DNA from: a virus
Strand: one strand, 5' to 3'
IMG/VR virus record: IMGVR_UViG_3300044801_000208
Span: 1-64,000 of that record
DNA: 64,000 nt
The notes under the pieces are model-generated. The model saw only the letters and a program-made list of their open reading frames with translations. It did not search any database and was not told the origin of the DNA. Of the stretch, positions 4,452-62,607 are shown one piece after another. Made by a program: the position numbers and the translations under genes. How positions within the stretch are numbered: the first letter of the stretch is position 1; each line of letters opens with the position of its first letter.

Positions 4452-4949
4452 TCATACTTTCCCAAAATTTGTAAGCGCAAATTCACCGAAATATAAACGA
4501 GCGGCGGCGTCGTATACTAAAGCAGCTTCACATTCAGTCCCAAACAGACCCAAATGCTTGCGTTTCCCGTTCATCCCGATCTGGGCTACCCATCTGCCCG
4601 AAGCCTTATGAAAACTCACCCCTTTGTATGAACTCGTTCCGCCTGAGCGCACACGCTGATTCCCTTGGTTCCCTTTCTTAACTGTGACTCTAAGGTTGTG
4701 TTTTTGACAGTTCAACCCGTTATGATCTTCGTGATCTACTTCTACAGCCGGATCAGTGACCCCCTTCACGAAGCGGTGCAAATTTATGCACACTGTTTTG
4801 TTGTCTTTTCGTTTTCCGACCCTGACGGTGCGACTTGCGTATACGGTATTTTTATCTATCCTAGCGATCCACCTGTACTGAGACACGGCGACGTAATCTT
4901 CATCGTCGATGAAAGCAACGTAGCCCTTTGTGAGAGGAATCTCTTTCAC
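4452..4949 (-). CDS. HNH-AP2 domain homing endonuclease
   Basis: IPLTKGYVAFIDDED, VDHEDHNGLNCQKHNLR, AP2 motif YKGV...W.AQI...LGLF...EAALVYD.AA; GTG start overlaps upstream TGA. Confidence 0.9.
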   Translation of the reverse strand: MKEIPLTKGYVAFIDDEDYVAVSQYRWIARIDKNTVYASRTVRVGKRKDNKTVCINLHRFVKGVTDPAVEVDHEDHNGLNCQKHNLRVTVKKGNQGNQRVRSGGTSSYKGVSFHKASGRWVAQIGMNGKRKHLGLFGTECEAALVYDAAARLYFGEFALTNFGKV

Positions 4950-5689
4950 GGTCTCTCTATAGACGGAAACTCGGGAATTGGCAAAACAATTTTCGGTGGG
5001 TAGGGATAATCCCCCGTCACAACTATATGAAAACATGAACCATTAAGAAGCTCCTCTTCCGCTATGACCATCCCGAGGTCCGACAGGTACTTCAGCTTCC
5101 TCTGGATGAACCTCACCTGCGCGAGCGTCAGGCCGCGCCTCTGGAGGTCCACCGCCACGCCCGCGAGGTGCGCGGACGCCGTCTCCCCGTGGACCGGGGC
5201 GGCGTTGTGGTTCCAGCGGCGGAGCCAGGTCTGCGTCCTCTCCGTGCGGACGGCGGAGTTCACCTGGATCGGCTCCCCGAACTCGGCGTAGTACTCGCCG
5301 CCGAGCTCCTCAAGGAACGCGTTCACGAACGGCCGCACGTAGCGCCGCTTCGCCTCCAGCCTGGGGCTGACGCGGACGCCCTCGCCGCCCGTGATGGGCA
5401 CCAGCTCTTCCTCGCGCACCAGGGACTTCAGGACCCTGTCGTCGCGGATGCGCGGCAGGCCCATCTCGTCGATCGCGGCGTTCTGGGCGAGCAGGTTCTC
5501 GTGGGACGGCACGAAGACGCGGCGCTCCCACCACTTGGGCTGCCTCGGACGCCTGTGCCTCCGCGACACCGTCTGGTACCTCGCGGTGACACAGTGGGCG
5601 GGCGGGGCGAGCAGCGCGATGCCGACGAGGATCGCGGCGATGCCGATGGCGGCGTTCGCCCTGCTGAGTCCTGGGGGCGTCTGGATCAT
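4946..5689 (-). CDS. DUF5715-like / peptidase M15-fold cell-wall hydrolase
   Basis: N-terminal signal/TM segment; VNSAVRT...N.NAAP...SAHLAG.AVD...FHI zinc peptidase motifs. Confidence 0.7.
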   Translation of the reverse strand: MIQTPPGLSRANAAIGIAAILVGIALLAPPAHCVTARYQTVSRRHRRPRQPKWWERRVFVPSHENLLAQNAAIDEMGLPRIRDDRVLKSLVREEELVPITGGEGVRVSPRLEAKRRYVRPFVNAFLEELGGEYYAEFGEPIQVNSAVRTERTQTWLRRWNHNAAPVHGETASAHLAGVAVDLQRRGLTLAQVRFIQRKLKYLSDLGMVIAEEELLNGSCFHIVVTGDYPYPPKIVLPIPEFPSIERP

Positions 5690-7992: not shown

Positions 7993-8367
7993 TTAGTGCC
8001 CCGTATTAGGTTCCTCGTCCTTCCAGAGCTCGGCCAACTCGGCCGTGATCTCGCGCCTGCCCTCGCGCCGCTCGAACTCCTTCTGCGCGTGCTCCGAGTG
8101 CGGGTGCTGGAACTCCCTGGCCTCCGGCGGCAGGACGGTGCAGAGGGTGCTGCGCTGCTTGTCGTACACGACATTAAGGGACCTGTCCTGGAAGTCCACC
8201 CGCCACAGCGAGCGGTTGTTGGACTGCTTGGCCACGAACTCCGCCTGGTTCGTCTGAATCTTCTGGACGATCTCGCGCCTCGCGTCCTTGTTCAGGGCGA
8301 GGTCGTACCGCTCGGCCGCCCTCTTCTTAGCGTGGGCGTTCAAAATTTTGCTAGTTTTCTTAGTCAT
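7993..8367 (-). CDS. hypothetical protein
   Basis: HAKKRAAERY...VVYDK...TVLP; RBS AAGGAG. Confidence 0.65.
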   Translation of the reverse strand: MTKKTSKILNAHAKKRAAERYDLALNKDARREIVQKIQTNQAEFVAKQSNNRSLWRVDFQDRSLNVVYDKQRSTLCTVLPPEAREFQHPHSEHAQKEFERREGRREITAELAELWKDEEPNTGH

Positions 8368-8402
8368 GGGCGGTACTCCTTCGCTGTGCCCAAAATAGTT
8401 TT

Positions 8403-8705
8403 CTAGCCTTGCTGATTCTGTCTCGTGCCTCCTTGGTATGCTTGTACCCGAGGCCCTTTTTGTTGCCCGTCTGCGCCTTGCTCATCCTGCGACGTGTCTC
8501 TAGTGTTAACACCGAACATGTCGCCGTTTGCGTAAAGATGCTCGATCGCCGCGTCGATCGGGTCGGGCTTGGGGACGGGGTGCAGGTCTATGGGGGTGTC
8601 ATACAGGTCGATCGCGTTGATGGGCTTGTCCGCCGCGACCGCCGCGTCGTAGTCACGCCAGCCCCGCTGAATAGCCTCCCTGGACATCGGTTCCTGGTCA
8701 GCCAC
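8403..8705 (-). CDS. hypothetical protein
   Basis: GTG start overlapping the end of the upstream ORF. Confidence 0.4.
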   Translation of the reverse strand: MADQEPMSREAIQRGWRDYDAAVAADKPINAIDLYDTPIDLHPVPKPDPIDAAIEHLYANGDMFGVNTRDTSQDEQGADGQQKGPRVQAYQGGTRQNQQG

Positions 8706-8946
8706 GCTTGCCCACCGCCTTCCCCGCGAAAAACGCCCTCTTGGCCACGTCGTAGTTGTTGCGGCATGTGCCGCAGCGGTCGCTCCAGGAGAGCGGCCAG
8801 TCCGTCTCCGTCGGCTCCTCGCACCCACTGCCGAACATCATGTTCACGCCCCTGTGGAGGCCGCAGTAGGCAATCCCCTCAAGGAGCGCGTTGCGCTTCT
8901 CCATCAGCTTGATGATCCTCTTGGATGTCGCCTTCTTGGCCTTCAT
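8698..8946 (-). CDS. hypothetical Cys-rich protein
   Basis: Coupled ORF. Confidence 0.55.
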   Translation of the reverse strand: MKAKKATSKRIIKLMEKRNALLEGIAYCGLHRGVNMMFGSGCEEPTETDWPLSWSDRCGTCRNNYDVAKRAFFAGKAVGKRG

Positions 8947-9266
8947 TGGTCCTCGCCTGTGTCAGGGTTCGCGGGCTTCGGGGACTGGTTCTTGCGGCGG
9001 ACCTTCCCGCCCTCGAACTCGACCCCGGCAAACATGGTGGAGTTCTTCCGTGCTGGCTTGGTCTTCTTGACAGCTTTGCCGATGCTGGCCTCGCGGCCCT
9101 GCTTGAGGTTGCGGCGCTCATTGCGACGGCTGAGGAGCTTCCAGTCGGCCCTGCCGAGCTGGCCGTTCTTGCCCTCGCCGCCGCATCCCATGGCTGGGAC
9201 GGGGCGCTCGTTCTGGCGCTTGTTCTTGTCGTTGGGGTCGCGGTGGTGGTTGACTTGGTTGCTCAT
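8943..9266 (-). CDS. basic hypothetical protein
   Basis: ORF downstream of an extended -10 (TGcTATAAT, 9281-9289). Confidence 0.55.
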   Translation of the reverse strand: MSNQVNHHRDPNDKNKRQNERPVPAMGCGGEGKNGQLGRADWKLLSRRNERRNLKQGREASIGKAVKKTKPARKNSTMFAGVEFEGGKVRRKNQSPKPANPDTGEDQ

Positions 9267-9290
9267 CGACTTATCAGCCGATTATAGCAC

Positions 9291-9929
9291 CTACTCCGCG
9301 TCCTTCAGGAGGGCCAGGGGCACGCCCTGCTCCTTCGCGTCCTGCGCGTCAAGGTAGCCGGACATGGCGTCGAGGCTCTCCTCCACGTTGGCGTCGACGT
9401 TGGGGTCCGCCGGGACTCCGTCGATGTCCCCGGTCATGGTGATCCCCGCCTCGGCCAGCTCCTCGTCCGTGAGCGGCTGGGCGATGTTGAGGTGGCCCGT
9501 GGGGTCAATGTGGGACGGGCGAGCCGGGCCCTGCGGCACGGCCATCCTGGTGTTCTTGGCCTCAAGGGGGTCGCGCGGCTCGCGGCGCTTGGGCATGTTG
9601 ACACCCATGGCCTGCACGCTGCCGCCCGCCTCTGCGGTGGCCACGAGGCCACCCGTGTCGCCCGGCTCTACCTGGCGGGACGAAATGAATTGAGTCTTGC
9701 CTGAATTTTGTGCTTCAGCCGCTAAGCACTCAATCATTGTTTCTTTCGCAAATTCTGCTATATCTGCGTTTGCGGCGTGTTTTTCACACGCGGCAAAGAC
9801 AGGTTCCCCCAGAGGGGCTGTATACCGCACATCGCCATATTCACGATGGATTCTACACGGACAGGTATCCTTCTCAAGCTCCAAACGAAACACACTGACC
9901 TTTTTCACCTTCATAGATATCTCCTCCAA
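9291..9929 (-). CDS. hypothetical protein
   Basis: 212-aa ORF; 5' third is AT-rich. Confidence 0.6.
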   Translation of the reverse strand: MEEISMKVKKVSVFRLELEKDTCPCRIHREYGDVRYTAPLGEPVFAACEKHAANADIAEFAKETMIECLAAEAQNSGKTQFISSRQVEPGDTGGLVATAEAGGSVQAMGVNMPKRREPRDPLEAKNTRMAVPQGPARPSHIDPTGHLNIAQPLTDEELAEAGITMTGDIDGVPADPNVDANVEESLDAMSGYLDAQDAKEQGVPLALLKDAE

Positions 9930-51827: not shown

Positions 51828-51991
51828 TTTGCTGCGTTTACGTCCCAGTCGGTCGATGGCTTTTACCCCATCGCGTCAGTCGGGGCATTCGCCGAGGCTG
51901 ACGGACATTCCGTGGTCGTCGAATCTCGTAGCCGAAGCTACGGCGTTTTTCTACCCACTTAAGGGAGTCCACGCGGATGCCACGCAGCAAA
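51828..51991 (-). ncRNA. unknown multi-branched structured RNA (about 164 nt)
   Basis: 10-bp closing stem TTTGCTGCGT/ACGCAGCAAA, UUCG-capped hairpin, several further helices; lies between tRNAs. Confidence 0.55.
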
Positions 51992-52562: not shown

Positions 52563-52609
52563 TATTTGCTCCCCCTACTTTGAATACTGTAGAAGGAGCA
52601 AATAGTTAA

Positions 52610-52969
52610 TTTACGCGACCTATAAGCGGGGTTCTGTAAGCACCGAAGTGCCCGACAGCCATTCGTCTAATCCACCTATTACTAGGCGGCTCAAGCCCCT
52701 AACCCGCAGATTGATAACGAACCGAGCAAGCTCTCTCTGCCTATTTAGGGTTGCTTCACGCAAGGTTTGCCATGCAACGACTGTTACCAGCCGCCCGGTG
52801 GTCTCTTAAACCGCCTTTTCACCCTTACCGTCTTGCGACGGCGGTATATTCTCTGTGGCACTGTCTATCACGGTTACCCGTGTCCGGGTGTTACCCGGTG
52901 CGCTGCTCTATGTAGCCCCGACTTTCCTCCCCCGTAAAATCACAGCGGCGACTGTCCGGTCAACGTAAA
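52610..52969 (-). ncRNA. rnpB: RNase P RNA, bacterial type A
   Basis: GAGGAAAGTCGGGGCT, AGTGCCACAGA, GGGTGAAA, GGCAAACC, AGACGAATG, ACAGAACCCCGCTTAT; P4 covaries; P1 closes the ends. Confidence 0.92.
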
Positions 52970-53570: not shown

Positions 53571-53646
53571 TGGTGCGCTGGAAGGGACTCGAACCCCCGA
53601 TGAGTGTCTTGTAAGGGCACCGCTTTAGCCGCTAAGCTACCCGCGC
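53571..53646 (-). tRNA. tRNA-Val(TAC)
   Basis: GTGCC-CTTACAA-GACAC; TTCGA; CCA. Confidence 0.9.
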
Positions 53647-54039
53647 AAATCTCTCTACGTACTCTGCCGCAAGCCTCAATAGGTTCGCTCGGTCGCGAAA
53701 ATGACCAAGCCCTAAATTACACCCGCGACACAAAAACCCACGAGCTATATCCGTCTCGTGATTATGATCTAAGTGGGCCTTCCTGAACCCACCCTCGATT
53801 ATTTCAGTACACACGGCGCAATGCCCTTGCTGTCCCGTCCACAAAGTTTGAAGCTCTTCTTCGCTCAAACCTAATCGAGTTCTCTTCCTCTGACTTCGAT
53901 TTGTGCGTTCACATCCCGCACAGAACGGGCGGCGTCCGCTCTTCCGGCTGACATCTGGATAAAATTCTCCCAGCTTCAACCATGCTTCACATCTTGGACA
54001 CCACTTCTCGTGTTCATTAAACTTTTTGTTTCGTCCCAT
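53632..54039 (-). CDS. endonuclease VII-family homing endonuclease
   Basis: Q.G.CAVC...HLDHNH.T...RGFLC..CN.GLG.F.D. Confidence 0.85.
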   Translation of the reverse strand: MGRNKKFNEHEKWCPRCEAWLKLGEFYPDVSRKSGRRPFCAGCERTNRSQRKRTRLGLSEEELQTLWTGQQGHCAVCTEIIEGGFRKAHLDHNHETDIARGFLCRGCNLGLGHFRDRANLLRLAAEYVERFARVA

Positions 54040-54060
54040 TCTGGACAATACTCGGAAAAT

Positions 54061-54092
54061 AAAAAAGGACGCTCACTTTTCAGTGGCGTCCT
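54061..54092 (-). terminator. intrinsic terminator of a putative attenuator
   Basis: AGGACGC-CAC-TGAAAA-GTG-A-GCGTCC-TTTTTT. Confidence 0.85.
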
Positions 54093-54140
54093 CGGAATCT
54101 CTGTTGGGTGGCTATTTAGCCGACTCGACCCTCCGAGGAC
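54088..54140 (-). promoter_or_regulatory. antiterminator helix overlapping the terminator 5' arm
   Basis: GTCCTCGGA (54140-54132) is perfectly complementary to TCCGAGGAC (54096-54088). Confidence 0.7.
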
Positions 54141-54235
54141 ATGGTATCTCCCTCCGCCGCTTCGGCGGCGACCGTACCTGCACACACGACGACTGCGGCG
54201 GATACGACGGTCGAGTTGGAGTTGAAGGAGTTCAT
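54116..54235 (-). CDS. putative attenuator leader peptide (39 aa)
   Basis: MNSFNSNSTVVSAAVVVCAGTVAAEAAEGDTMSSEGRVG*, downstream of TTGACA (54283-54278), overlapping the antiterminator arm. Confidence 0.65.
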   Translation of the reverse strand: MNSFNSNSTVVSAAVVVCAGTVAAEAAEGDTMSSEGRVG

Positions 54236-54296
54236 GTCTCTATCCTGATACTGCATATTCGCAAAATCTGCGGAAACTGTCAAGCGAAAAATCGCG

Positions 54297-54632
54297 ATGG
54301 CGCGGGAGGGGCCGGTTGCCAGTCCGACATCAGGCCCTGGTCGGGGATTCCCGGCCGTTGCTTTCGGCGGGTGCTCTTTGGGCTGCCGCCCTAGCGTTTG
54401 AGCTACACCTTCCCGCGCCAAACTTGCCGGGTGCCCGCTGTGGCTCCCCGCGCTGCACCCTGACTCCGTGTTGCCAAAGTGTTTCCCCCAGCATCTCTTG
54501 GCCCGGTGAATACAGGGTCGGAGTCGGGGGCTGCGGCGCGGCTCAGTGGGCTATTCACGCCCTTTGTCCCTCTGGGCTGTTTATCCTCTGGGGACGAGCG
54601 GCGGTTTCCCGCAGGCTAAAATCAATCTCTCA
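54297..54632 (-). ncRNA. candidate large structured RNA (about 330 nt)
   Basis: At least 8 nested helices and a 7-bp loop-loop complement; no credible ORF; CAGTACTAT motif just upstream. Confidence 0.55.
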
Positions 54633-54947
54633 TGTATAGTACTGCAAAGTCAAGGTTTTTCTTCGCGAAGCGGACTTTTTGGGAACCTACCCCTTCGGTG
54701 GGCCCCCTACCACGGCTTGCGCCGGGGTACTTTTTGCGGGCCTTGGTACTTGCTGACGCTTTCCCTGCCCAGACCGTCTAAAGGTTTTGGGGCGGTGGAT
54801 GCCGCCCCGTTGAGAGTGGTTTCCTAGGCCGTAGAAGGCGCGGAACGACAGCGTGGCCACGCTGAGGCCGCCGGAGCGCCAAAACTTGCTGGACGGATTG
54901 TGTACCGTCGCCAGGGAACCCGACCCCTGTCCGTTGCCTTCGCTCCC

Positions 54948-55634
54948 TCACAGTATACGCTGGGCGCGGCAGGATCGTCCGGAACCCTCCTGTATCTGCT
55001 GAATCAGTATCTTGCGACCCCTCAGGAGCCTGGACTTGAGCGCCGCCATGGGGATCAGGACGGGGGTGCCGTCCTTCTTGCGGTGGACGGGGCCGAGGAC
55101 GCGGCGGATGTCCTTGTTCCGCATGCCCTCCCAGAAGCGGAGGCGGAGTATCTCGCGGTACGCCGTCGGCACGCGGGTGATCGCACGCCTCAGAACCTCC
55201 CGGTCGGCCACGCCCTCCAGGCACAGGTCGCGGACGGAGAGCCTCACGGCTACCTTCCTGCCGTACGTCTCGCCGCTGAGCTCCTGGTCCAGGGAGACCT
55301 CGTTGCGGCACGCCTGCGTGTTCTCGTGCCTCAGGTGTTGCAGCCCCTCGTTGATTGCGATGCGGGTGACCCAGGTGGAGAACTTGGACTGCTCGTCGAA
55401 CGTCCCGAGCTTCTGCCAGACCTTCGTGAGCGCGACGTTCGCCAGCCACTCGGCCTGGTCCTCGTCGTGCACGATGCGGCTGATGACGATCCGCAGGCGG
55501 TTGTGGTGGTGGGCGTAGAGCGCGGTGAACGCCGCCTCTTCGCCGCCCTTGGCGCGGCGGACCAGCTCAAGCTCCTCCGGCGAGTCGTAGACCTTGCGCT
55601 TCAGCGCGGGTGCTGCGGCTGCTGATGCTCCCAT
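54948..55634 (-). CDS. ECF-type RNA polymerase sigma factor
   Basis: LVRRAKGG...AF..LY, F...SKFSTWVTRIAIN (region 2); LP/VP..YREIL.LR...G....I...LG...KSRL.RGR (region 4). Confidence 0.85.
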   Translation of the reverse strand: MGASAAAAPALKRKVYDSPEELELVRRAKGGEEAAFTALYAHHHNRLRIVISRIVHDEDQAEWLANVALTKVWQKLGTFDEQSKFSTWVTRIAINEGLQHLRHENTQACRNEVSLDQELSGETYGRKVAVRLSVRDLCLEGVADREVLRRAITRVPTAYREILRLRFWEGMRNKDIRRVLGPVHRKKDGTPVLIPMAALKSRLLRGRKILIQQIQEGSGRSCRAQRIL

Positions 55635-57181: not shown

Positions 57182-60100
57182 CTACATTTCGCACGCGCCT
57201 GCGGAACAGGCAAGCTCCTTGGCGGCCGTGGTCATGTCCTCTTTTTCAAAGTCGGGGAGGCGGGCCCAGTCTATGGACGGCTCCCTCCCCCTGAGGCTTA
57301 AATACTCGGCCTGGGTGATTTCCGTGTAGGGTGCCTGGCGGTATATCCCGTTGTCGTGGGGCTGGAAGCTGATCCCGCCGATCAGGTCGAAGTGCTTGAA
57401 GCACCAGGCCAGCACGTCGGTCCACTCGGCCTCGCGGACGTAGATCGTGCAGTTGTGAGTCAAGATGTTTCCCTCTAGCACAAAATGCCCTTCCTCTGGT
57501 TCCTCGACGCAAAACACAGGCTCTATTTTGTCTGTCTTGCGTACCGCGACAATCTTCCAGAATTTGTCATGCTTAGCCGGTGAGAACCGGGACCGTTTGT
57601 CCTCCAGCACAAAGAAGTTTTCATCAAGCGTGCCTTTATGTATCCCGACGACATAGCCCGTGTGACCGCCAAAATTCTTGGACCAGCGCTCCCCGATCTG
57701 GGTAGATACAGCCAGCCCAGCTTTTGGGGCTGCTTCCTGGAGCCAAAGTAAGCTGTCACGAACACTGGACGCCAATGTACATTGCCCGTCCTGCGCTATG
57801 TGCCCGTCTGCGGCAAACCAGCCGCTGATAAACCCCCGCAGGTATTCTGGACTGCTTGTTGTGATGCCGGGCAGGGTCTTCCAGTTGTTTGGGAGCCCAT
57901 AAAATCTGACTTGCCCCACATCTTCCCTTGGGGTCGGCTTATATCCGGCTTGCTCAAACAGCACCGACAGCTTGCGGCTATCACAGCCGTTCGGGTCGTT
58001 GCAGAGATATATTTGGCAGGCTTTCGGCTGGCTGGTGCCGTCAGCGGAGGCCGCCACGCGGGCAGCCCCGTCCCCGTACGTGATCCCGTGGAGGACGGCT
58101 TGCTTGTCAAGGCTAACCCGGAAAGCGGGATTAACGGTGACAAACTGCCGCTTGCCGACAAAGCCGTGAATCTTGTCCGTAGGAACCAGCTTTTCCTTGT
58201 ACCCAGCCCAGCGCCCGAAAGCGTAAGTCAACGGCCAGAGATGCGAAGCTGTAGTTTCTATCGTATGTTTTGCCCCACATCTCTCCAACTCAACCTCCCA
58301 AATGGGCTGTTTACCGAAACGACGCACAGTGGCATCCTTCCATACGCCTCGTTTGCCGAGCACGCGCACCTTCTCCCCGTCTGAGAATTGGGAGAAGCTT
58401 GCCAGCCCCCGGTCTGTGATAAACCGCGTTTTTCCAGAAAAGCAACTCGGGTTGTGCTCCGTCCAGTGCATCTTGTACGTCTTGTATGTCTCCAGCTGCT
58501 CCATGGCCGTGCGGTCGTTGCGGCACACGCTCGTGTCCGGCGACTCCAGGGCGAAGAAGAACACGTCGGAGTCGTTCGGCTTGTTGAGCTCCGGCTCGGA
58601 CAGCCAGCCGATCGCCTTCATGAACTCGTTGACCGGGCTCTTGCGGTCCTCCTGCGTGCCGCGCATGATCCAGCGGGCGTAGCGGGCGTGGATGCCGGGC
58701 GAGCAGTTGACCAGCTGGGACACGGTGCCCGAGGGCTTGATGCAGGTGATGGCGGCGGGGACGGGGATGCCCAGCTTCCCGGCCCACTCCGTGGCGACCT
58801 CGATGGTGTACTCGCGCAGCTCGTCCAGGAACTTCGCCAGCTCGGGGCCGTTCGTGGACATCATGACGTTGTCCATGATGCCCGTGAGGGAGACGCCCAG
58901 CAGGCGCTCCTCCTCCGCGTTCTTCTGCCACTCCTTGCGGAGGTAGCGGAACTCGGTCAGCGTGGACTGGAGGCAGCCGATGATCGTCGCGATGCGGACC
59001 TTGCGCCTGATGGTCGCCTTGGTGTCGTGCGGCCTGATGACGCACTCGGAGAGGTTACAAAATCCTTGAGGACGGAGATTTATCTCACCGCAGTTATGAA
59101 CATACAACCCGTTGGCATCAAAGGCATTGATGCCGGGAATCGAGCAGTCGAATACTTCTTTATCGCCGATGTAGGTAACTGTTTCAACTTTAGAGAAAAA
59201 CCGCTCACGGTTGATTTCCCGTTGGTAGTTCGTCAACGCTGACATCAATTTCTCTTGCTTAGATTCATCCTCAAAGCCTACTACGCTAGCAAATTCTACG
59301 AGATTGTCATTAGCTATAATAAGTTCATGTTGTGCTTGACAAAAATATTCCTTCGAACCCCCACTGCCATCAGGCAACAAACGCAAACCCGCTTCTCGAC
59401 GGTCTCTATAAATTGCAGAAACTACCCCCAGCCTAGCCAGCATCCGTTGGGCGACTTGCAACCCCGGCAAATCAATTGAAGAAAGGCGAACACTCACTCC
59501 CTTAGCTTGCGTTCCCTGTACAGAACCATCAGCGTCAAACCAACCCCGTAAAAATCCTCGATGAAAGTCGCTGCTAGTGGCCTCGATGTTTGGGGTCAGT
59601 TGTTTTGCTTGCGTAAAGCCGTACTCAGACGCTAAGGTACCCAGTTTTACAGAACCTACTCTGGTTCGATTGCACTGTGGTTGATCATTCCCTTTAAGAT
59701 CAGAACGTGCCCCTACGGCTGCATAAACGCGAGCTATAGCGACCTCAACCAGCTCAGAGCGGCTGTCGCCCCAATAATCAAGGTTGGCTTTACCGCTAGA
59801 CTCTATATTGCCATCCCCTTTCAAATTACCTAGAAGCCAACCTTCGTCAAAGGTCCCAACCCCCTTGAACTGGTAATTACGGTGGTTATTCAAAACCACC
59901 CGATCCCCCACCTGTAGATCACTTACACGCTTCCATGAAGTACGCTGAGTCTTTTGGCTTAGGTAATCCATAACCAAAACAAGGTGGTCACCTGTTGCCT
60001 CCAACAAATAGCCGTGAGTAGTTACCAATTGGTACACGGGTTTTACGCCTGTGAAGAAAAATCCGTCCTCAGTGGATTCATGCTCTTCGCCGTCCACCAC

Positions 60101-62122
60101 GGCGGTAAACTTTTTACCTAATAAATTACCGACTTGATTCGGTCCGTTCGCAGTTGTAATCCACACAGTTTTAGTTAAGCACGGGTTGGTGCCGAACTCG
60201 ATGCCCTCCCACTTGCGCCTGCCCGTGCGCTTCGCGGAGTTGATGGCCGCGACGCGGTTGAAGATGCCGCGCTCGCCGGACTTGGACTCGATGAGGGTGA
60301 GGAACTCCTTGATGAAAATCTCCGGCTCGGGCTTCTCCGTGTAGGCCACGGAGTTGTTGGCCAGCCTGCGCCAGGGCGTGGCGCTCGGCTTGTACCACTC
60401 GCCCGTCTTCGCGCCGCGCATGCGGTCGTCGGACAGGTTGGACAGCGACAGCATCGCGCTGCGGCGCACGCCGCCCACGACGACCACGTCGCCGACCATG
60501 CACATGAGGTCGTGGCACTCCAGCGAGCTGAGCCTGCGCCCGGCCGCCTCCTTGAAGAGGCCGACGGTGAACTTGAAGAGGCGCTCCAAGGGCTCGGGGC
60601 CGGAGGCGCGGCCGCCCATGGTCTTGAGAACGGAGCCCGCTGGCCTGACGGCGCTGAGGTCCCAGGTCGGGACGGAGCCGCTGTAGAGGAGGCTGATCAG
60701 CTGGCGGAACGCGTTGGACCAGCCGATCTTGGAATCCCTTACTTTGATGCAGGTCTCGACGGGATAGAACTTCTCGGCGATCGTGGGGAGGAGGTTGGTG
60801 TACTGGCGCTCGACGGAGAAGCCCACGCCCGTGCCGCACATGCTGAGGTACATCGCCTCGTCGAACGCCCTCGGGTCGTTGACCGCGATGTAGGAGCAGT
60901 TTCCGGTGACTATCCCCCCGGCGAGCACAAATGTGCTGGTGTCGGGTACCTCAGCGCAAAAGACCTCCTTTTGGTCTCCCGTCTCCTCGACGGCGTCTAT
61001 CGTGAAATAAGACACCAATGGTTTGAAGTTTTCGCGTTTCCGGCTGCACAGGAAATCCTCCTCCACCATGGAGCTCCGGCTGAATCGCACCACGTATGAG
61101 TCTTTTTTGCGTTTTCCGTAGTTTGTTTCCGCCTTCTGCTTATGAAACCCCTGGACGACGCATCCGAGTCTTTCGGAGTTCAGCAGCAGCCACTCCAGCC
61201 CCTCGGCGGCGGTGCAAAGAGACACTGAGCCGCTCCCTCTGTTCACCGAACCGTCGGCGGCCATCCATCCGCGAATAAACCCCAGTAGGTACGACTCTGT
61301 TTCGGACATCGGGGGGAGTTCTTTCAGCGCGTGGGTTGCCGCAAAATCGTCGTACAGCATAACTACCGGATCGCCGCCGAACGACGGTGGGTAGCACACG
61401 GGGTACCCCTCGAAATGCACCAGCAGCTCCCGGCTATCCCCGCAGAGGCGGATGTGCCAGCCCTTTACGCGTTTGCACGATTTGGTCGCGGTGCCGTCTC
61501 CGTATATGAGCCCGTGCCTCACCCCGAGCGGGTAGTCGTCGTCAATTTCCGGTTTTAGGGCGCGCGTGAACGGCACCCTGTCTTTTCGCTGAAGGCCGCT
61601 TGTGGGGACGACTCTGCCGTCCGTCAGCAGCCAGCGGTGGTTGGCTGAGCATTCGACTGTTTTTTCCGTGTTTGAGTTGAGTTTCAGCTTGACGTTAAAC
61701 GTGGGCTGTTTTCCGTAACCGTGAATCGCGGCCTCCGCCCACGCCCCGTTGGAGTTAACCACGGTGACGGATTCGCCCGCGACGGCTTGTATCTCCACGT
61801 TCCCGTGCTCGCGGGTGACGATTCTCGTCTCCCCCACGACAGGGTTGTACCCGGCGGCGTTGTCCTTCTCCAGCGCGGGGCCCGCCGTCATCATCGCCCG
61901 CATGGAGGGCATGACCTCCATGTGGTAGATCGCCTTCTCAAGCTCGGAGGCCGTCGCCTCGCGGTCGGCCTTGGGGATGCGCGGCGAAAAGAAGGACACG
62001 TAACGGCTTACCGTCTCGTCCCAGTGCTCCCTCCTGCCCTTTTCTTCCACCCAGCGTGCGTATCTCGACTTGTGTATGAAGGCGGAGTAGGTAGACATCT
62101 CGAACGGAGATTTGGACACCAT
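57182..62122 (-). CDS. nrdJ: class II (B12-dependent) ribonucleoside-triphosphate reductase with three inteins; spliced product about 637 aa
   Basis: SRYARW...RE.W.ETV.RY, PSMR, GTGVGFS, GGVRRSA, TNP|CGEI, TCIKPSGTVS, C-terminal CSAGACE. Confidence 0.92.
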   Translation of the reverse strand: MVSKSPFEMSTYSAFIHKSRYARWVEEKGRREHWDETVSRYVSFFSPRIPKADREATASELEKAIYHMEVMPSMRAMMTAGPALEKDNAAGYNPVVGETRIVTREHGNVEIQAVAGESVTVVNSNGAWAEAAIHGYGKQPTFNVKLKLNSNTEKTVECSANHRWLLTDGRVVPTSGLQRKDRVPFTRALKPEIDDDYPLGVRHGLIYGDGTATKSCKRVKGWHIRLCGDSRELLVHFEGYPVCYPPSFGGDPVVMLYDDFAATHALKELPPMSETESYLLGFIRGWMAADGSVNRGSGSVSLCTAAEGLEWLLLNSERLGCVVQGFHKQKAETNYGKRKKDSYVVRFSRSSMVEEDFLCSRKRENFKPLVSYFTIDAVEETGDQKEVFCAEVPDTSTFVLAGGIVTGNCSYIAVNDPRAFDEAMYLSMCGTGVGFSVERQYTNLLPTIAEKFYPVETCIKVRDSKIGWSNAFRQLISLLYSGSVPTWDLSAVRPAGSVLKTMGGRASGPEPLERLFKFTVGLFKEAAGRRLSSLECHDLMCMVGDVVVVGGVRRSAMLSLSNLSDDRMRGAKTGEWYKPSATPWRRLANNSVAYTEKPEPEIFIKEFLTLIESKSGERGIFNRVAAINSAKRTGRRKWEGIEFGTNPCLTKTVWITTANGPNQVGNLLGKKFTAVVDGEEHESTEDGFFFTGVKPVYQLVTTHGYLLEATGDHLVLVMDYLSQKTQRTSWKRVSDLQVGDRVVLNNHRNYQFKGVGTFDEGWLLGNLKGDGNIESSGKANLDYWGDSRSELVEVAIARVYAAVGARSDLKGNDQPQCNRTRVGSVKLGTLASEYGFTQAKQLTPNIEATSSDFHRGFLRGWFDADGSVQGTQAKGVSVRLSSIDLPGLQVAQRMLARLGVVSAIYRDRREAGLRLLPDGSGGSKEYFCQAQHELIIANDNLVEFASVVGFEDESKQEKLMSALTNYQREINRERFFSKVETVTYIGDKEVFDCSIPGINAFDANGLYVHNCGEINLRPQGFCNLSECVIRPHDTKATIRRKVRIATIIGCLQSTLTEFRYLRKEWQKNAEEERLLGVSLTGIMDNVMMSTNGPELAKFLDELREYTIEVATEWAGKLGIPVPAAITCIKPSGTVSQLVNCSPGIHARYARWIMRGTQEDRKSPVNEFMKAIGWLSEPELNKPNDSDVFFFALESPDTSVCRNDRTAMEQLETYKTYKMHWTEHNPSCFSGKTRFITDRGLASFSQFSDGEKVRVLGKRGVWKDATVRRFGKQPIWEVELERCGAKHTIETTASHLWPLTYAFGRWAGYKEKLVPTDKIHGFVGKRQFVTVNPAFRVSLDKQAVLHGITYGDGAARVAASADGTSQPKACQIYLCNDPNGCDSRKLSVLFEQAGYKPTPREDVGQVRFYGLPNNWKTLPGITTSSPEYLRGFISGWFAADGHIAQDGQCTLASSVRDSLLWLQEAAPKAGLAVSTQIGERWSKNFGGHTGYVVGIHKGTLDENFFVLEDKRSRFSPAKHDKFWKIVAVRKTDKIEPVFCVEEPEEGHFVLEGNILTHNCTIYVREAEWTDVLAWCFKHFDLIGGISFQPHDNGIYRQAPYTEITQAEYLSLRGREPSIDWARLPDFEKEDMTTAAKELACSAGACEM
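57452..58444 (-). mobile_element. intein 3 of nrdJ (331 aa, LAGLIDADG)
   Basis: NPS|CFSGKT...ASHLW...GITYGDG...GWFAADG...VFCVE...LTHN|C. Confidence 0.9.
59093..60181 (-). mobile_element. intein 2 of nrdJ (363 aa, LAGLIDADG) at the thiyl-radical Cys
   Basis: TNP|CLTKT...TGDH...GWFDADG...VFD...VHN|CGEI. Confidence 0.92.
60899..61843 (-). mobile_element. intein 1 of nrdJ (315 aa), class 3 (Pro1, WCT)
   Basis: GYN|PVVGET...ANHRW...GLIYGDG...GWMAADG...VFCAEV...VTGN|CSY. Confidence 0.88.
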
Positions 62123-62607
62123 TAGGCGGCCTTCCCGTACGATTTCGTCTTGCCGTTCAGGGCCCGCCAGGTCGTCATCGTAGCCGTGTTCATCCGCTCC
62201 GCTATCGTCGAGTACGTAAGGCCTTGAGCACGCATGGCGAAGACCGAATCGATTTGTTGGGGGCTCAAAACTGTGTGCTGAGGGACGCCATAGCACTGAA
62301 TGTTGAAGAGCTTTGCGCCGCTGTTCTTGTTTTCTTCGGTCAGCTCAGCCTCAATTTTCCGCGCTGACCTGTTGTCAAGGCTTTGAGCGGCGATGACGAC
62401 GTAGTCAGCCGGGGTGTACCCGGCGTTGAGTAAGCCTTGAATCCAGGTCTGGTGTTCTTTCGTGCGGTTTCCTCGTCCGCTGGGGCTAGACGAGCTTCCG
62501 ATAGCCCAAGCGCGTCCGCCTGTGCCTTTGCCGACGTACACAACTTCTTTTGTTTCAGGGTGAATGTGAAGGTAGACGTAGAATCTATTGCCTGACCTGC
62601 TGACCAT
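62122..62607 (-). CDS. GIY-YIG domain protein with C-terminal HTH
   Basis: FYVYLH......VYVGKG...RA; G.TYSTIA.......WRAL. Confidence 0.8.
   Translation of the reverse strand: MVSRSGNRFYVYLHIHPETKEVVYVGKGTGGRAWAIGSSSSPSGRGNRTKEHQTWIQGLLNAGYTPADYVVIAAQSLDNRSARKIEAELTEENKNSGAKLFNIQCYGVPQHTVLSPQQIDSVFAMRAQGLTYSTIAERMNTATMTTWRALNGKTKSYGKAA

Follow-up and report, generated by a model that had tools for sequence, protein, structure and literature searches.

The function of the orphan structured RNAs found in phage tRNA arrays has, to our knowledge, been an open question since RNAs C and D of bacteriophage T4 were described. GOLLD and ROOL are multimeric RNAs of several hundred nucleotides. A preprint describes GOLLD (RF01998) and ROOL (RF03087) as orphan structured RNAs that often lie beside tRNA genes of phages and prophages, and as rich in tertiary contacts, with loop-loop pairings that serve assembly (bioRxiv 10.1101/2024.12.08.627333). 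The T4 rnaC (139 nt) and rnaD (119 nt) are small stable RNAs encoded in the T4 tRNA transcription unit (PMC3014915; T4 annotation). The DNA analyzed here, which we call the window, covers the initial 64 kb of a viral contig of 97.8 kb from IMG/VR (completeness estimate 31%) and belongs to a giant uncultured soil phage. Its minus strand encodes, from 54617 to 54481, the 137-nt conserved core of a real non-coding RNA. This core is a member of a previously uncatalogued family of ~140-nt structured RNAs of huge uncultured phages.

The core and the two T4 RNAs are phage RNAs of about 120-140 nt; the T4 RNAs share the transcription unit of a phage tRNA cluster, as the core is predicted to do, and the cuts that free the tRNAs presumably free all three. 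They differ in location and fold: rnaC and rnaD lie at the distal end of their array, whereas the core lies at the head and has its own promoter, and the fold of rnaC has a tRNA-like T arm and, unlike the core, no loop-loop knot. Homology to rnaC and rnaD was considered and rejected; our covariance model R1, which gives the window core 136.9 bits, was run with filters off over T4 70.5-72.7 kb, and its best score was 9.6 bits, over tRNA genes, with no match on rnaC or rnaD. GOLLD and ROOL are far larger than the 137-nt core, and their size and ornate multi-domain architecture were not found in a unit that measures 120-145 nt across eight copies. A location next to tRNA genes in phage DNA is common to them and the core, although this is a matter of context and does not define a family. 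An earlier note on this DNA, made from the sequence of the window, had mentioned GOLLD and ROOL; the comparison is useful as a loose contextual analogy, but neither of these far larger RNAs matches.

No family of Rfam 15 reached its gathering threshold in the region, in a search that took in GOLLD, ROOL, YrlA, raiA, HEARO, EAR, riboswitches and ribozymes. At E<=10, positions 53900-55100 returned only noise (mir-3960 at 22 bits vs 73, and a lncRNA fragment), and the homologous cores of four other loci (L010, L122, L076 and L178) returned nothing at E<=0.1-5. ARAGORN identified 12 tRNAs in the window and Rfam 9, none of them between 53647 and 54947, and no tmRNA was found in this gap. The earlier note's statement that no known family can be assigned is borne out by an Rfam search that is empty even at E<=5-10. 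A protein-coding reading was also rejected: ORFs overlapping the core have no Pfam match, the lengths of the copies differ by non-multiples of three, and all sense frames are stopped in three copies, in agreement with the lack of a credible ORF noted before. We conclude that this is a new RNA family. In kind it joins the structured orphans of phage tRNA arrays, such as T4 RNAs C and D and, by context, GOLLD and ROOL.

The consensus fold of the core, given here in minus-strand order, is built from six helices. The long-range closing helix P1 (54614-09 with 54536-31) continues via P2 (54603-596 with 54544-537) into a three-way junction with the hairpins P3 (54595-91 with 54570-66) and P4 (54562-59 with 54551-48). 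P2 contains a C.C opposition at 54600/54540 in the window, where four copies have U-A. The 3' strand of P1 leads into P5 (54530-26 with 54489-85) with no linker between them, and P5 encloses the hairpin P5a (54517-15 with 54504-02). Invariant unpaired nucleotides include the GGAG-AAAC block of L3 and AAA in J3/4. The molecule is closed by a kissing pseudoknot of 6-7 bp, in which the P4 loop GUGAAUA (54558-52) is the exact complement of the P5a loop UAUUCAC (54512-06). Six of the pseudoknot pairs are invariant in seven copies, and L188, which diverges most, has matching changes in its two loops (GUGACA with UGUCAC), so that covariation of the pseudoknot comes from one lineage only. The P5a stems are unrelated among copies (CCC/GGG, CCUU/AAGG, CUUCCGG/CCGGAAG, GCCC/GGGU), and the loop that they carry is always the same pairing loop. 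The pseudoknot is the best-conserved tertiary feature of the RNA. By analogy with the much larger ROOL and GOLLD, the complementary P4 and P5a loops may pair between molecules and give an RNA-only oligomer.

One detail near the 5' end stands apart from this consensus. The trinucleotide CGC at 54601-54603 of the minus strand is invariant in 8/8 copies, and in L002, L010 and L188 it is bulged from the consensus fold, outer P2 being formed there by GAC/GUC or CAC/GUG. Local pairing of this CGC (54603-01) with the GCG of P1 is possible, a hint of either a tertiary contact or a second conformational state. A local GCGG-GAAA-CCGC hairpin was considered as the true 5' helix and rejected; it shows no covariation and is broken in L188, where P1 is compensated.

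Folding energy and sequence comparison make different contributions to the evidence for this fold. The whole stretch of 336 nt folds better than its shuffles on the plus strand (z -3.6) and on the minus strand (z -2.7), and therefore energy alone does not choose the strand. The z-score of the isolated core is only -1.7, and the minimum-energy fold of each isolated core (8/8) has the same architecture. As energy in this GC-rich DNA decides neither function nor strand, we turned to comparison of homologues. In a MAFFT alignment (A4), 88.8% of cells are paired and 11 of 33 pairs change on both sides; shuffled controls gave 5.7+-1.6 two-sided pairs (0/500 reached 11) and slid partners gave 1-3. 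With only eight sequences aligned, several of them closely related, these covariation statistics are indicative and not decisive, and related sequences can beat shuffles without any structure. The model-fitted alignment has 94% of cells paired and 11 two-sided pairs against 4.6 in shuffles. RNAalifold recovered P1, P3, P4 and P5 with 8 compensated pairs from an unfitted MAFFT alignment.

Compensated positions in a hand-registered table number 3 in P1, 2 in P2, 3 in P3, 2 in P4 and 2 in the pseudoknot, the last in L188. The first three pairs of P1 alternate between C-G and U-A, U-A and C-G, and G-C and A-U, respectively; P2 has pairs varying among G-C, U-A and A-U, P3 has one that is U-A or C-G and another that is C-G or U-A, and P4 shows C-G, A-U, U-A and U.G. 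Nine G.U cells of the alignment would be A.C if read on the opposite strand, and together with the promoter and synteny described below they fix the RNA to the minus strand. Collection of homologues, a check proposed in the earlier note, thus yielded eight distinct copies that share the fold, with covariation above that of shuffles.

We detected at least eight distinct copies of the RNA: in the window, L122, L121 (=L158, L178), L076, L193 (=L194), L002, L010 and L188. The homologues sit on huge-phage contigs. A search with an alignment of the sigma factor encoded upstream led to four viral loci with the order sigma gene, gap, tRNA-Val(tac), tRNA-Ala(tgc), further tRNAs and RNase P RNA, while a single-sequence search of viral contigs with the sigma protein gave no match. 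Alignment of these gaps showed a stretch upstream of the attenuator (see below) that is common to the window and L002 only. Pattern scans anchored on the core or on a block of the attenuator were then filtered with nhmmer and the covariance model, by which L007, L009, L013, L015-L071, L192, L203-L205 and L215-L220 were discarded as chance motif matches. Four phage records, including two complete genomes (463 kb and 332 kb), each contain a single copy of the RNA, and the sigma proteins of RNA-bearing phages are only ~50% identical.

Outside this group the RNA was not found. No match was obtained by blastn of the window and of L193 against GenBank phages; 185,579 species genomes gave 8 pattern matches, 0 of them confirmed; and none was found in 151 sampled Acidobacteriota, a weak test in that the phylum was picked only from one weak MAG match. 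As far as tested, the RNA family is confined to this huge-phage group. Within it, a clade represented by L003, L004 and L005 lacks the RNA at the syntenic position despite keeping the order of sigma gene, attenuator and tRNAs. Related phages with the array and the attenuator lack the RNA, and it is therefore not required for either. In the RNA-less clade the slot is occupied by a conserved small ORF with the start MLNELPMFRDL (L004 ~4790-5100; also L126, L129, L139 and L166), possibly a functional substitute such as an anti-sigma factor or another regulator. A separate observation concerns the 463-kb phage: upstream of its core RNA, at L010 923-1053 (= L208 908-1038), the Rfam tRNA model spans 131 nt with 44.8 bits, suggesting that a tRNA gene there carries a large insert.

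All genes around the RNA locus are encoded by the minus strand. In the direction of transcription, a class II ribonucleotide reductase laden with inteins (57182-62296) is followed by an ECF-type sigma factor whose real product is ~228 aa and whose gene ends at 54948, by a gap of 900 nt without genes that holds the RNA, by an endonuclease VII gene (53632-54048), and by 12 tRNA genes, between which a class A RNase P RNA is encoded (52608-52967; 268.9 bits). The array downstream of the RNA comprises ~3.6 kb of untranslated tRNA and RNase P RNA genes. Wherever a locus has sufficient flank, tRNA-Val(tac)/Ala(tgc) lies downstream of the RNA in the same orientation, and so does a class A RNase P RNA if the flank extends to it. 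The sequence between the sigma stop codon and the promoter of the RNA (54656-54947, minus strand) contains GC-rich hairpins, for example GGGGCGG..CCGCCCC, and a short block CTACGGCCT-GGAAACCAC is common to this interval of the window and L002 4694-4790. This interval may be the terminator region of the sigma gene.

The gap also contains a leader-peptide attenuator (54060-54290, minus strand), which consists of a promoter, a 39-codon ORF and a terminator/antiterminator and is near-identical across the aligned gaps. Its promoter is TTGACA-17-GAATAT, its short ORF is rich in Val, Ala, Cys, Gly, Glu and Asp codons, and its hairpin is GGTCGCCGC-N4-GCGGCGG, with GTCCTCGG competing with the terminator, which lies near 54060-54092. 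The attenuator is far more widespread and more conserved than the core RNA. It was found in the window, L002, L003, L004, L005, L010, L121, L076, L122 and L188, as a sequence variant in L193, and further in L126, L129, L139, L147 and L166. The comparison upholds the view that the interval from sigma gene to attenuator, beside a phage tRNA cluster, contains a non-coding RNA that is structured and pseudoknotted.

A predicted promoter of the RNA has the -35 hexamer TTGACT (54648..54653, minus strand), with TTGACT or TTGACA at the same place in 8/8 loci, and 18 nt further on an extended -10 TG-A-GAGATT (54624..54632, minus strand). A block of the form TGA-GAGATT, GACATT or GACAAT is kept in six window-clade copies; L010 and L188 have TATTCT and TATTGT as -10 instead. 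From these motifs we infer an active promoter of the sigma-70 type, with a likely start near 54617, three nucleotides before P1, placed to within about 15 nt. The earlier note had pointed to a different promoter-like motif, CAGTACTAT, which is indeed present at 54636..54644 of the minus strand; the promoter hexamers are other ones, and this motif sits in the spacer of the better promoter. The TACTAT that it contains is possibly a second -10, although it has no matching -35. CAGTAT is conserved ahead of the RNA at every locus.

The promoter spacer and discriminator (54620-54644, minus strand) are unusually conserved as CAGTATC..CATGAGAGATTGA. The same interval can also be read as a three-codon mini-ORF, AUG AGA GAU UGA, the stop of which is UAG in L076; this reading frame may be a coincidence.

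P5 is followed by an A/U-rich single-stranded tail, AAACACUUUGG (54474..54484, minus strand). Its consensus AACAAYUUUAGG is present in 7/8 copies, even in those without a promoter downstream, and it could be a processing site of the RNase E type. No intrinsic terminator was found on the minus strand after the window core. The attenuator promoter follows 13-20 nt past the core with no terminator between in L121, L076 and L002, a tRNA begins 13 nt past the core in L188, and other non-coding sequence follows in L010 and L193. These last two have in common a conserved non-coding stretch of ~160 nt 3' of the core (L010 1781-1940 and L193 7881-8049; nhmmer E 1e-19), which has no Rfam match, is absent from the window and may be another uncatalogued RNA. 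L193 further has an N6/N4 DNA methylase ORF with an HTH (8081-9307) between the RNA and the attenuator, showing that RNA and attenuator are separable modules.

The RNA had originally been outlined as a unit of 330 nt; the RNA that we find supported is the 137-nt core with its short A/U-rich tail, and the remaining ~190 nt are a lineage-specific 3' appendage. The first part of this appendage is a 3' extension of ~60 nt (54421..54480, minus strand) that is common to the window and its closest relative, L122, only and is absent from L121, L076, L002, L193, L010 and L188. In the window the 3' strands of P1, P2 and P5 are potential pairing partners of the extension, and the resulting fold (-149.1 kcal/mol) is 5.9 better than the consensus-constrained fold (-143.2 kcal/mol) before the pseudoknot, worth about -5.4, is counted. 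The gap of 5.9 is nearly offset by the pseudoknot, and the two window folds are therefore close. L122 has the extension without the competing helices.

The second part is a branched domain of 123 nt (54298..54420, minus strand) closed by a perfect, GC-rich helix of 10 bp (54420-11/54307-298). It folds as a five-way junction, its fold energy is not unusual (z -1.5), and no counterpart was found in L122 or the four phage records. It has no Rfam match, tRNA call or repeat. The possibility that it is a repeat, or a relative of a branched RNA at 51828-51991, was rejected since no similarity was found. The domain looks like a recent insertion unique to the window phage.

These results divide the structure drawn in the earlier note into roughly equal parts. 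Its helices exist in the sequence: 54298-307/54411-420 (10 bp), 54310-15/54351-56, 54324-28/54340-44, 54462-68/54519-25, 54473-77/54498-502 and 54566-70/54591-95 are perfect, and 54448-60/54528-41 are complementary with one wobble and one mismatch. About one third belongs to the conserved fold, namely P3 (54566-70/54591-95) and the hairpin P4 (54548-62), both supported by 7 other homologues, and the pseudoknot, for which 54552-58 is exactly complementary to 54506-12 as proposed and which comparison of the homologues supports. Another third consists of window-only pairings in conflict with that fold, as 54448-60/54528-41, 54462-68/54519-25 and 54473-77/54498-502 all need the private extension, clash with P1 and P5, and are not kept in L122, the only other copy with the extension. 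The final third, three helices and the hairpin 54380-91, falls in the 123-nt private insertion, found in no other genome. P1 (54614-09/54536-31), P2 (54603-596/54544-537) and P5 (54530-26/54489-85) were missing from the drawing.

We hold, with somewhat better than even confidence, that the RNA with the fold established above is cut from the transcript of the RNA operon, is stable and acts in trans. Host sigma-70 polymerase would transcribe it from the TTGAC(T/A)/extended -10 promoter, starting 2-20 nt before P1, and in the absence of an intrinsic terminator transcription would continue into the attenuator and the tRNA/RNase P RNA operon. Processing would free the compact core, either at the A/U-rich tail or by RNase P cleavage at the next tRNA, the latter being suggested by the layout of L188. 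The freed core would persist, as a parallel to RNAs C and D of T4, and act in trans on a partner. This reading is favored by the compact knotted fold, the RNA's own promoter, its single copy and its membership in an island of stable RNAs. Against it, the 3' end, the stability and the processing are all deduced from sequence here, the missing terminator and the fixed upstream place fit a leader acting in cis equally well, and thermodynamics slightly favor, for the full-length transcript of the window, a fold in which P1 and P5 are lost.

The main rival, possible though doubtful, is a leader of the RNA operon that works in cis, in which the core would stay on or act on its own polymerase, by analogy with known antitermination RNAs. 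The putL and putR RNAs of HK022, EAR and the boxB-boxA leaders of rRNA operons are, like the core, promoter-proximal folded RNAs before a terminator and a long transcription unit. The likeness of the core to put, EAR and boxA leaders is one of position only; the core has no sequence or model similarity to these RNAs and no boxA, is larger and is knotted. Transcripts from the upstream promoter would pass the attenuator terminator and resist Rho, and those from the attenuator promoter would stay regulated. Such a role would fit an RNA that is always upstream of and co-oriented with the array, two tandem promoters ahead of a terminator-containing leader, and the lack of a terminator between the core and the next promoter in L121, L076, L002 or the window. 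A long untranslated operon is moreover a natural target of Rho. The role is harder to reconcile with phages that have the same attenuator and array and lack the core RNA, and with L193, where a DNA methylase gene and another RNA lie between the core and the array. There is also no similarity to Rfam families, catalogued antitermination RNAs included, and no boxA-like GCUCUUUAACAA; by eye, the tail AACAAYUUUAGG has only AACAA in common with boxA. That the core represents a new class of cis-acting RNA, which would reprogram the polymerase of the host where a phage RNA island begins, is in our view rather unlikely. If the cis reading is true, transcripts would ignore the codon-sensing attenuator and Rho over several kb of untranslated genes for tRNAs, RNase P RNA and other structured RNAs, and the same tRNAs would be reached by an unregulated early route and by a regulated route.

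It is improbable that the core is the aptamer of a ligand- or factor-sensing switch, with the window extension as a platform competing for the 3' strands of P1 and P5. The two near-isoenergetic window folds, the start site close to P1 and the ability of the invariant CGC (54603-01) to pair with GCG of P1 would suit such a switch, and the core resembles purine and lysine riboswitches in its multi-helix junction, in the pairing of two distal loops and in a start near P1. It differs from these in having no Rfam match, no conserved platform, and a promoter following it instead of a regulated gene. A conserved expression platform was not found: the extension is missing in 6/8 copies and without the competing helices in L122, a promoter or other RNAs follow after 13-20 nt in 6/8 copies, the next element is a promoter and not a terminator or ribosome-binding site, and the alternative pairings show no covariation.

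A catalytic RNA, either self-cleaving or a processing ribozyme, that trims the operon transcript at its start would account for a compact pseudoknotted fold with invariant unpaired nucleotides at the 5' end of a processed polycistronic RNA, and is nevertheless very improbable given that no Rfam ribozyme family matches at permissive thresholds and that the copies do not conserve the hammerhead-like strings CUGANGA and GAAA. Hardly credible at all is a chance fold of a GC-rich spacer, a decayed gene or a missed small protein gene: GC-rich sequence does fold well on both strands, the core z is only -1.7 and open frames arise by chance in such composition, but compensatory changes affect the pseudoknot as well as five helices, the RNA has a conserved promoter and is kept in single copy across phages with sigma factors ~50% identical, and indels that are not multiples of three, stops in three copies and the lack of a Pfam match speak against a protein.

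Huge phages encode RNAs for translation themselves; in the clade that bears this RNA these are tRNAs for few amino acids and an RNase P ribozyme, together with an attenuator matched in its codons. The core would be a further part of that apparatus. With it, the known orphan RNAs from phage tRNA arrays gain a fold that is compact (~140 nt) and supported by covariation. Its small size, defined predicted promoter and 7-bp kissing interaction make it tractable for structural and functional study. Should the core prove to control polymerase or the processing of RNA, it would reveal a way in which phages achieve expression of long RNA operons that are not translated.
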